NCBI RefSeq assembly: GCF_003334785.1
Contig: NZ_QOWV01000001.1
DNA from: Escherichia coli
GTDB lineage: Bacteria > Pseudomonadota > Gammaproteobacteria > Enterobacterales > Enterobacteriaceae
Strand: one strand, 5' to 3'
DNA: 64,000 bases
The notes beneath the pieces were generated by a model. The model was not told the origin of the DNA and searched no databases. It saw only the letters and a program-made list of their open reading frames with translations. Below, one piece after another: positions 32,174 through 37,182 of the stretch (within the stretch, counting starts at the first letter, position 1; the number at the start of each line of letters is the position of its first letter). The translations under genes and the position numbers were made by a program.

Positions 32174-32731
32174 ATGAGTGATGAGGGACTGGCGCCAGGA
32201 AAACGCTTGTCGGAAATCCGCCAGCAGCAGGGGCTTTCACAACGTCGTGCCGCCGAACTCTCCGGGCTGACTCACAGTGCTATCAGTACGATAGAACAAG
32301 ATAAAGTCAGCCCTGCCATCAGTACGCTGCAAAAGCTGCTGAAGGTGTATGGTCTGTCACTCTCGGAATTCTTTTCCGAGCCGGAAAAACCTGATGAGCC
32401 GCAGGTCGTCATTAATCAGGACGACTTAATTGAGATGGGTAGTCAGGGTGTGTCAATGAAGCTGGTTCATAACGGTAACCCGAATCGCACGCTGGCGATG
32501 ATCTTTGAAACGTACCAGCCGGGCACAACCACTGGGGAAAGAATTAAGCATCAGGGTGAGGAAATAGGCACTGTACTGGAAGGTGAAATTGTTCTGACGA
32601 TTAATGGTCAGGATTACCACCTCGTCGCGGGGCAAAGTTATGCCATTAATACCGGCATCCCGCACAGTTTCAGTAATACGTCGGCAGGTATTTGCCGAAT
32701 TATCAGCGCCCATACGCCCACCACGTTTTAA
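32174..32731 (+). CDS. puuR: Repressor PuuR (XRE HTH plus cupin)
   Basis: 185-aa ORF MSDEGLAPGKRLSEIRQQQGLSQRRAAELSGLTHSAISTIEQDK... Confidence 0.95.
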   Translation: MSDEGLAPGKRLSEIRQQQGLSQRRAAELSGLTHSAISTIEQDKVSPAISTLQKLLKVYGLSLSEFFSEPEKPDEPQVVINQDDLIEMGSQGVSMKLVHNGNPNRTLAMIFETYQPGTTTGERIKHQGEEIGTVLEGEIVLTINGQDYHLVAGQSYAINTGIPHSFSNTSAGICRIISAHTPTTF

Positions 32732-32775
32732 TCTTTTTGTTCTGTAAGCCGGGTAAGCGCAATGCGCCCGGCAAT

Positions 32776-32905
32776 CTATACACAAAATCATTCAAGTTGC
32801 ATCAAGGCGGCAAGTGAGCGAATCCCGATGAGCTTACTCAGGTAAGTGATTCGGGGGAGCGAACGCAGCCAAGGCAGAGGCGGCTTGAAGGATGAAGTGT
32901 ATATA
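32776..32905. repeat. ERIC/IRU enterobacterial repetitive intergenic consensus element
   Basis: Imperfect ~127-bp palindrome with the core gtgagcgaatcccgatgagcttac...gtaagtgattcgggggagcgaacgcag, resembling the ERIC1R/ERIC2 primer regions; between puuR and puuC. Confidence 0.75.
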
Positions 32906-33005
32906 AAGAATGTCGCCAGAAATAAACGGGCATACGGCCCGGGGATCTCTGCGCCCTGACGTTCACAAACTGCATATATCTGATAGACGTGAAACAGGAG
33001 TCATA

Positions 33006-34493
33006 ATGAATTTTCATCATCTGGCTTACTGGCAGGATAAAGCGTTAAGTCTCGCCATTGAAAACCGCTTATTTATTAACGGTGAATATACTGCTGCGGC
33101 GGAAAATGAAACCTTTGAAACCGTTGATCCGGTCACCCAGGCACCGCTGGCGAAAATTGCCCGCGGCAAGAGCGTCGATATCGACCGTGCGATGAGCGCA
33201 GCACGCGGCGTATTTGAACGCGGCGACTGGTCACTCTCTTCTCCGGCTAAACGTAAAGCGGTACTGAATAAACTCGCCGATTTAATGGAAGCCCACGCCG
33301 AAGAGCTGGCACTGCTGGAAACTCTCGACACCGGCAAACCGATTCGTCACAGTCTGCGTGATGATATTCCCGGCGCGGCGCGCGCCATTCGCTGGTACGC
33401 CGAAGCGATCGACAAAGTGTATGGCGAAGTGGCGACCACCAGTAGCCATGAGCTGGCGATGATCGTGCGTGAACCGGTCGGCGTGATTGCCGCCATCGTG
33501 CCGTGGAACTTCCCGCTGTTGCTGACTTGCTGGAAACTCGGCCCGGCGCTGGCGGCGGGAAACAGCGTGATTCTAAAACCGTCTGAAAAATCACCGCTCA
33601 GTGCGATTCGTCTCGCGGGGCTGGCGAAAGAAGCAGGCTTGCCGGATGGTGTGTTGAACGTGGTGACGGGTTTTGGTCATGAAGCCGGGCAGGCGCTGTC
33701 GCGTCATAACGATATCGACGCCATTGCCTTTACCGGTTCAACCCGTACCGGGAAACAGCTGCTGAAAGATGCGGGCGACAGCAACATGAAACGCGTCTGG
33801 CTGGAAGCGGGCGGCAAAAGCGCCAACATCGTTTTCGCTGACTGCCCGGATTTGCAACAGGCGGCAAGCGCCACCGCAGCAGGCATTTTCTACAACCAGG
33901 GACAGGTGTGCATCGCCGGAACGCGCCTGTTGCTGGAAGAGAGCATCGCCGATGAATTCTTAGCCCTGTTAAAACAGCAGGCGCAAAACTGGCAGCCGGG
34001 CCATCCACTTGATCCCGCAACCACCATGGGCACCTTAATCGACTGCGCCCACGCCGACTCGGTCCATAGCTTTATTCGGGAAGGCGAAAGCAAAGGGCAA
34101 CTGTTGTTGGATGGCCGTAACGCCGGGCTGGCTGCCGCCATCGGCCCGACCATCTTTGTGGATGTGGACCCGAATGCGTCCTTAAGTCGCGAAGAGATTT
34201 TCGGTCCGGTGCTGGTGGTCACGCGTTTCACATCAGAAGAACAGGCGCTACAGCTTGCCAACGACAGCCAGTACGGCCTTGGCGCGGCGGTATGGACGCG
34301 CGACCTCTCCCGCGCGCACCGCATGAGCCGACGCCTGAAAGCCGGTTCCGTCTTCGTCAATAACTACAACGACGGCGATATGACCGTGCCGTTTGGCGGC
34401 TATAAGCAGAGCGGCAACGGTCGCGACAAATCCCTGCATGCCCTTGAAAAATTCACTGAACTGAAAACCATCTGGATAAGCCTGGAGGCCTGA
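33006..34493 (+). CDS. puuC: Gamma-glutamyl-gamma-aminobutyraldehyde dehydrogenase (NAD(P)+ aldehyde dehydrogenase)
   Basis: 495-aa protein starting MNFHHLAYWQDKALSLAIENRLFINGEY (track ORF extended 32 codons across the ERIC element); catalytic Cys in GQVCIAG. Confidence 0.95.
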   Translation: MNFHHLAYWQDKALSLAIENRLFINGEYTAAAENETFETVDPVTQAPLAKIARGKSVDIDRAMSAARGVFERGDWSLSSPAKRKAVLNKLADLMEAHAEELALLETLDTGKPIRHSLRDDIPGAARAIRWYAEAIDKVYGEVATTSSHELAMIVREPVGVIAAIVPWNFPLLLTCWKLGPALAAGNSVILKPSEKSPLSAIRLAGLAKEAGLPDGVLNVVTGFGHEAGQALSRHNDIDAIAFTGSTRTGKQLLKDAGDSNMKRVWLEAGGKSANIVFADCPDLQQAASATAAGIFYNQGQVCIAGTRLLLEESIADEFLALLKQQAQNWQPGHPLDPATTMGTLIDCAHADSVHSFIREGESKGQLLLDGRNAGLAAAIGPTIFVDVDPNASLSREEIFGPVLVVTRFTSEEQALQLANDSQYGLGAAVWTRDLSRAHRMSRRLKAGSVFVNNYNDGDMTVPFGGYKQSGNGRDKSLHALEKFTELKTIWISLEA

Positions 34494-37093: not shown

Positions 37094-37182
37094 ATGTCTG
37101 ATGCGCTGCGCTTATCAGGCCTGCAAACGACGTATTGATTATGTATGCCGAATAAAGCATTCACGCCGCATCCGGCAAGTTG
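37094..37182. repeat. BIME: pair of inverted REP elements between puuE and pspF
   Basis: gtctgatgcgctgcgcttatcaggcctgc and gccgaataaagcattcacgccgcatccggcaag in opposite orientations. Confidence 0.75.

Follow-up and report, generated by a model that had tools for sequence, protein, structure and literature searches.

The puuR-puuC spacer of Escherichia coli contains an imperfect palindrome of about 127 bp, and the locus raises the question of whether this palindrome is a true ERIC/IRU element and, if so, how it came to lie within an operon and what it may do to the mRNA that carries it. The window analyzed here is a 64,000-nt stretch of E. coli DNA that is collinear with E. coli K-12 MG1655 (window coordinate + 1,329,737 = NC_000913.3 coordinate). 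At this locus, the K-12 RefSeq record annotates puuD, puuR, puuC, puuB, and puuE, with no repeat feature. A 274-nt spacer separates the puuR stop codon (32729-32731) from the puuC ATG (33006), and the element lies between the two, where the original prediction had placed it. The spacer and its borders are laid out as follows, in window coordinates:

32174-32731, + strand: puuR coding sequence, the upstream gene, with its stop 45 nt 5′ of the ERIC (ORF list, K-12 RefSeq)
32748-32772, + strand: small GC-rich hairpin just 3′ of puuR, outside the ERIC (folds of filled and empty spacers)
32777-32903, + strand: full-length ERIC/IRU, 127 bp counting both end TAs (paralogue alignment, leave-one-out nhmmer)
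32777-32778, unstranded: left copy of the duplicated target TA (filled versus empty alleles)
32777-32803, + strand: left terminal inverted repeat arm (27-nt inverted repeat, paired in the MFE fold)
32818-32861, + strand: central core, formed by the ERIC1R (reverse complement) and ERIC2 primer sites (primer matches)
32877-32903, + strand: right terminal inverted repeat arm (27-nt inverted repeat, paired in the MFE fold)
32902-32903, unstranded: right copy of the duplicated target TA (filled versus empty alleles)
32908-32964, + strand: second spacer hairpin, 3′ of the ERIC and not part of it (folds of both alleles)
32910-33005, + strand: spurious 32-codon extension of the puuC ORF (ORF 32910-34493)
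32996-33000, + strand: Shine-Dalgarno AGGAG of the true puuC start (read from the sequence, conserved)
33006-34493, + strand: puuC coding sequence, the downstream gene, 495 aa (RefSeq, tblastn in other genera)

ERICs are 127-bp MITEs with terminal inverted repeats, TA termini, and a target duplication, and their transcripts form a long stem-loop (PMC2229807; PMC3184786). A profile HMM for nhmmer was built in a leave-one-out manner from five other E. coli copies, with the puu copy excluded, and returned a single match in the 64 kb, in which model positions 1-127 corresponded to 32777-32903 (121.7 bits, E = 9.3e-37). The five copies, from a T6SS cluster (DUF4123/DUF3304 genes), hsdR-hsdM, queA-acpH, rhlB-gppA, and panC-rpnC, are all intergenic or abut gene ends. 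The puu copy is 80-86% identical to each of them and 114/127 (90%) identical to their consensus, well clear of the 60% line drawn in the original prediction, the consensus used here being our own five-copy build and not the published one of Hulton et al. Similarity in the alignment runs from TATAC to GTATA, which is 32777-32903 (127 bp), and identity falls to 0-40% in the flanks; the TATAC start and GTATA end recur in four of the five other copies. These homology bounds lie within 1-2 nt of those proposed beforehand for an imperfect palindrome of about 127 bp. Using the 130-nt query, blastn found full-length matches in all of the 5,426 complete E. coli genomes, at 47,674 places and with a median of 10 per genome.

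The core of the element was also compared with the ERIC-PCR primers, the sequences of which were confirmed from published literature. The leave-one-out consensus holds an exact ERIC1R site (reverse complement), and the six-copy consensus reads GTGAATCCCCAGGAGCTTACAT/AAGTAAGTGACTGGGGTGAGCG, which are both primer sites. The puu copy itself matches ERIC1R and ERIC2 at 17/22 and 18/22 positions, respectively; its core carries the variant CCCGAT...ATTCGGG, with compensatory changes, and as a result it has 4-5 mismatches to each primer. A primer search allowing at most three mismatches recovered only the ERIC1R site, and not ERIC2 (4 mismatches). The stretch 32777-32903 is a genuine full-length ERIC/IRU copy: it combines the 127-bp length, the similarity to the consensus and its core, and an imperfect palindrome with terminal inverted repeats with TA termini and a TA duplication, multi-copy intergenic dispersal, and presence or absence at an orthologous site. 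The orientation of the ERIC consensus in the puu copy is the direction of puu transcription.

The two arms (32777-32803 and 32877-32903) are 74% complementary across 27 nt, and the + strand RNA (130 nt) folds into one long imperfect stem-loop of 43 pairs at -52.5 kcal/mol (z -6.1), a stability that 0/200 shuffles attained. The inverted-repeat arms and the comparison of folding with shuffles therefore indicate that the imperfect palindrome is real and not a chance occurrence. Its outermost 7 pairs are contiguous and Watson-Crick, and they are the 7-bp TIR given in PMC2229807. The − strand RNA folds at -37.1 kcal/mol (z -4.3), and the asymmetry of 15 kcal/mol between strands arises because the G·U pairs of the + strand fold, four in number, are A-C mismatches on the − strand. 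When the full spacer is folded, the ERIC forms an independent module between the hairpins at 32748-32772 and 32908-32964; both of these are found in filled and empty alleles, the first is kept in outgroups, and the second is found in outgroups as well.

Across the six copies, 11/42 consensus pairs are compensatory, for example the change from CCCCAG/CTGGGG to CCCGAT/ATTCGGG in the puu and rhlB-gppA copies (columns 51/77 and 52/76). In a DNA palindrome, such changes can have DNA-level hairpins or transposition constraints as their cause, and not only RNA function. As a separate observation, the pairing core variant CCCGAT...ATTCGGG/ATTCAGG, which replaces CCCCAG...CTGGGG, is common to the puu and rhlB-gppA copies, and this sequence likeness suggests either an ERIC subfamily or that one of the two copies gave rise to the other.

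Wilson and Sharp (2006), as cited in PMC10969869, reported ERIC loci that vary among E. coli strains. For the puu locus, filled sites were counted with a 381-bp query centered on the ERIC, for which full coverage was required, in 5,426 complete E. coli genomes, and 2,794 of these have an ERIC-filled puuR-puuC spacer. The puuR-puuC junction itself, detected with a 619-bp query, is present in 4,342/5,426 genomes, which places the ERIC in about two thirds of the genomes with the locus; by difference of the two counts, ~1,548 genomes have a spacer that is exactly 125 bp shorter. Empty sites were identified directly by allele-specific 44-nt junction queries in ~1,500 genomes, 972 with a C-type and 527 with a T-type site, and the C-type empties include O157:H7, EDL933, and O145:H28. 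Filled carriers among the named strains in the matches listed are K-12, BL21, HS, O104:H4, and O111:H8. Spacer length is thus not uniform in the species, and the strain variability that had been predicted is amply confirmed by the filled and empty counts.

The alleles also record how the element arrived. The filled K-12 allele reads GGCAATC-TA[TACAC...GTGTA]TA-TAAAG, and the empty alleles read GGCAATC-TA-TAAAG in strain 746 and GGCAATC-CA-TAAAG in O157:H7; filled and empty alleles differ by a clean 125 bp, and their flanks are otherwise identical. Since the gain of 125 bp amounts to 123 bp plus an extra TA, the alleles point to insertion at a TA with duplication of that TA. Identity of at least 99% was found in 2,791/2,794 filled copies, and this near-identity fits one insertion event. 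Outgroup loci were collected with a degenerate puuR 3′-end pattern in species-representative genomes (35 loci, 34 of them informative), and an ERIC between puuR and puuC was absent in 34/34 informative loci. A 149-nt C-type spacer occurs in E. albertii, E. whittamii, Escherichia sp. E1V33, and the divergent ‘E. coli’ E69. With all outgroups empty and the Escherichia relatives of C-type, the empty C-type site is ancestral and the ERIC is derived within E. coli. Judged from these sequence comparisons, the pattern would fit a single insertion event in an ancestor shared by some E. coli lineages, and the 527 T-type empties could predate the insertion or could have arisen by precise excision.

Other variants of the spacer were observed in the course of these searches. 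The puuR-puuC junction is missing in ~1,036/5,426 complete E. coli genomes, and in strain ST2747 only the puuC 5′ end matches, adjoining a helix-turn-helix gene. An entire lineage, suspected to be phylogroup B2, may lack the puu cluster or carry it in rearranged form. E. coli 94EC (NZ_CP047576.1, locus 382-547) has an ERIC-less spacer that exceeds the common empty allele by 15 bp, with a tandem-like duplication (GGCTAGCTATAAAG / GGCAATCTATAAAG) and changed hairpin loops. This spacer closely matches those of Pseudocitrobacter faecalis and P. vendiensis, in which the N-terminus of PuuC is 92-93% identical to that of K-12, and the likeness hints at a possible inter-genus exchange of the puu cluster. 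Spacers of ~285-305 nt, compared with the usual ~140-160 nt, are found in Enterobacter sp. 10-1, Raoultella terrigena, and Enterobacteriaceae RIT693. An ERIC in these three spacers was rejected, as the profile search was negative and the extra DNA is GC-rich and palindromic; the spacer seems to have been struck independently by other repeats in these three genomes. In one E. coli strain (NZ_AP027829.1), an IS1 (777 bp including the 9-bp duplication ATAGACGTG) is located at window 32983-32991, 15 nt upstream of the puuC ATG and between the ERIC and the Shine-Dalgarno sequence, where it probably disconnects puuCBE from the operon promoter.

The 3′ border of the spacer depends on where puuC begins. 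The longest puuC ORF (32910-34493) would encode 527 aa, and RefSeq gives puuC as 495 aa from 33006; the original prediction had explained the 32 additional codons as an artefact of reading through the ERIC. An in-frame TAA at 32904-32906 follows the ERIC end (32903) and precedes the start of the extension (32910), and because the extension begins past both the ERIC end and this stop, there is no reading through the ERIC. The extension is also open in ERIC-less loci, namely those of E. albertii, E69, E1V33, and Pseudocitrobacter. The frame is interrupted by stops 3-19 codons 5′ of the conserved ATG in Citrobacter, Enterobacter, Cedecea, Lelliottia, Pluralibacter, and Raoultella, and spacer lengths across loci differ by non-multiples of three. 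The sequence AGGAG stands 5 nt ahead of the ATG at 33006, a GGAG-type motif is located 5-6 nt before the ATG in 21/22 enterobacterial loci, and tblastn alignments of PuuC in other genera begin at residue 1. The true puuC start is 33006 and the upstream extension is spurious. The extension is therefore an artefact, as had been proposed, in light of the AGGAG, the 495-aa RefSeq protein, and the stops in other genera, but its attribution to the ERIC does not hold, given the start at 32910.

Any influence of the element on gene expression would depend on its being transcribed. Published work regards puuDRCBE as a single operon repressed by PuuR (PMC9397018; PMC10100675). On the + strand, a scan of 32600-33100 for intrinsic terminators, defined by a GC-rich hairpin with a U-tract directly behind it, found no terminator-like site, and the ERIC hairpin is followed by GUGUAUAUAAAG, with no U-tract. 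A crude consensus scan for sigma-70 promoters only found none in the element on either strand, and the sole promoter-like match in the scan of the spacer overlaps the puuC start. With an operon described in the literature and neither terminator nor promoter in the spacer, the ERIC is most likely transcribed as part of the puu polycistronic mRNA. Separately, the only match of the terminator scan is on the − strand, a terminator-like hairpin and T-run (CGGGCCGTATGCCCG TTTATTTCTG) at 32941-32927, within the second spacer hairpin and outside the ERIC, a type of site that is within chance expectation at 0.5 per shuffle. We know of no antisense gene at 32927-32941.

Taken together, the reading that we favor, with a probability of roughly 93%, is that the spacer holds one ERIC copy that entered by a single TA-duplicating insertion, is probably co-transcribed, and is either neutral or mild in its effect on the mRNA. 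The ERIC entered a TA in the single-stranded linker between two older small spacer hairpins, duplicating that TA. Its RNA is predicted by computed folding to form, by itself, an imperfect hairpin of about -52 kcal/mol, and the puu mRNA, if transcribed through it, would carry the ERIC in the more stable orientation, with the G·U pairs and without an RNase E-type RNWUU motif. The mRNA strand of the ERIC has 0 RNWUU motifs and the antisense strand has 3, two of them in its 3′ arm; the motif is a weak one, with ~2 expected by chance per 127 nt, and the orientation argument from these counts is only suggestive. As the ERIC is 45 nt from the puuR stop, ribosomes should not melt the hairpin. The operon can work without the element, which is missing from ~1,500 E. 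coli genomes and from every related species, and the consequence of carrying it would be neutral or a mild change in segmental mRNA stability or processing. Possible routes to such a mild change would be a barrier to 3′-exonucleases that protects the puuDR segment, or a site for a double-strand RNase between puuDR and puuCBE. In Yersinia, ERICs that are co-transcribed next to stop codons lower the upstream transcript in an orientation-dependent manner, and this effect has been attributed to 3′ arms that expose an RNase E site (De Gregorio et al. 2005, as summarized in PMC2229807 and PMC10969869). By analogy, an effect of the ERIC on the stability or processing of puu mRNA is plausible.

A stronger claim would be that the ERIC is a functional cis-regulatory RNA, either a stabilizer or a site where RNase E or RNase III processes the mRNA or brings about its decay, and that it thereby sets puuDR levels relative to puuCBE; carriers would then gain a selectable difference in putrescine catabolism. 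We regard this as unlikely, although it has several points in its favor: a long stable hairpin sits exactly between two operon segments, identity of at least 99% has been retained in 2,791 genomes, pairing within the family is kept by compensatory changes, and Yersinia ERICs shift the levels of co-transcribed genes depending on orientation (PMC2229807; PMC10969869). However, the same operon runs without an ERIC, and with identical flanks, in ~1,500 E. coli genomes and in every related species, and high identity would be expected anyway from a recent insertion inherited by descent. The puu copy is also unlike the Yersinia elements, being 45 nt from the stop, behind a hairpin, and without RNWUU in its 3′ arm. 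Less probable still is that the ERIC represents an adaptive, lineage-specific change that uncouples the mRNA stability of the repressor and hydrolase from that of the downstream catabolic genes; if it were, carriers (K-12, BL21, and many commensal/B1-type strains) and non-carriers such as O157:H7 would regulate putrescine catabolism differently. It is very improbable that the hairpin partially terminates or attenuates transcription between puuR and puuCBE, or that the element supplies an internal puuCBE promoter. RNA polymerase can stall at, or be released by, a hairpin as stable as this one (about -52 kcal/mol), and MITEs of other bacteria sometimes carry promoters (PMC3184786), but no U-tract follows this hairpin (GUGUAUAUAAAGAAUGUCG), the crude, sigma-70-only consensus scans and the terminator scan found neither a + strand terminator nor a sigma-70-like promoter in the element, and puuDRCBE is treated as one unit (PMC9397018; PMC10100675).

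Slightly more remote is the idea that the element encodes a discrete small or antisense RNA comparable to V_AS5 of Vibrio. The only meaningful Rfam match is indeed RF02818 V_AS5, over the full model (1-129) at window 32776-32899 with an E-value of 4.5e-8, but its score of 44.8 bits falls far under the gathering score of 96, which places the element outside that family, and the sigma-70 scan found no promoter on either strand of the element. Rfam contains no ERIC family, and its four other matches (E > 3) are noise. The resemblance can be accounted for by the occurrence of ERIC-type repeats in Vibrionaceae as well (PMC10969869), and V_AS5 itself probably represents the transcript of an ERIC-type repeat in Vibrio. 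Finally, there is next to no chance that the sequence is a fortuitous palindrome or a REP/BIME in place of an ERIC. The region is rich in hairpins and REP112 has been linked to puuDRCBE transcripts (PMC10100675), but the profile match (E = 9e-37) and the 90% identity to the ERIC family consensus, together with the paralogue alignment, refute both readings. A REP is a GC-rich palindrome of ~35 bp with its own consensus, frequently arranged in inverted pairs, and the 127-bp unit is unrelated to it in sequence; the canonical REP pair of this region lies in the puuE-pspF gap.

That pair, which is unannotated in RefSeq, consists of inverted canonical REPs (TGATGCGCTGCGCTTATCAGGCCTGC ... GCCGCATCCGGCA) 3′ of puuE at ~37095-37180. 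It is most likely the REP112a-b that was linked to puuDRCBE transcripts (PMC10100675). The alternative that REP112a-b corresponds to the two small hairpins of the puuR-puuC spacer was rejected, given the canonical pair in the puuE-pspF gap.

The inserted, probably co-transcribed ERIC departs in nothing from the known behavior of its family, so that the finding is correct and ordinary: the puu copy is a usual member of a family already known since 1990-91, in the most studied bacterial genome. A literature search for ERIC together with puuC (aldH/ycjC) returned nothing relevant. Labeling 32777-32903 as an ERIC is useful, as the K-12 RefSeq record has no repeat there, and the label guards against calling a 527-aa PuuC and against misreading the hairpin as a terminator or sRNA; beyond such annotation housekeeping, the puu ERIC matters little. 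With 4-5 primer mismatches and absence from many strains, it is a minor source of differences in ERIC-PCR patterns. The allele split (2,794 filled; 972 + 527 empty) does offer an isogenic-like natural experiment on a within-operon ERIC and segmental mRNA stability. To our knowledge, an effect of this kind has been shown only in Yersinia.

Compared with known systems, the puu copy differs in nothing essential from the ERIC/IRU family and is a member of it. ERIC/IRU/RU-1 elements were reportedly described by Sharples and Lloyd in 1990 and by Hulton et al. in 1991. The puu copy shares with the family its intergenic position, its location within an operon, its dispersal in several copies through each E. 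coli genome, and its strain-variable presence. V_AS5 resembles the puu ERIC in sequence and structure over its full length and differs in host clade (Vibrio). REP/BIME and the Correia elements of Neisseria are likewise short intergenic palindromes that are transcribed within operons and able to influence mRNA stability. Correia elements are, in addition, MITEs that duplicate a TA and are cleaved by RNase III, and REPs are ~35 bp long, but both belong to sequence families unrelated to ERIC. The closest functional comparison is with the Yersinia ERICs, which are of the same family, are co-transcribed between genes, and form an RNA hairpin, as would be expected for the puu copy. However, the destabilizing Yersinia elements directly adjoin stop codons and carry their RNase E site in the 3′ arm, whereas 45 nt that include another hairpin separate the puu copy from the stop, and the 3′ arm on its mRNA strand has no RNWUU.
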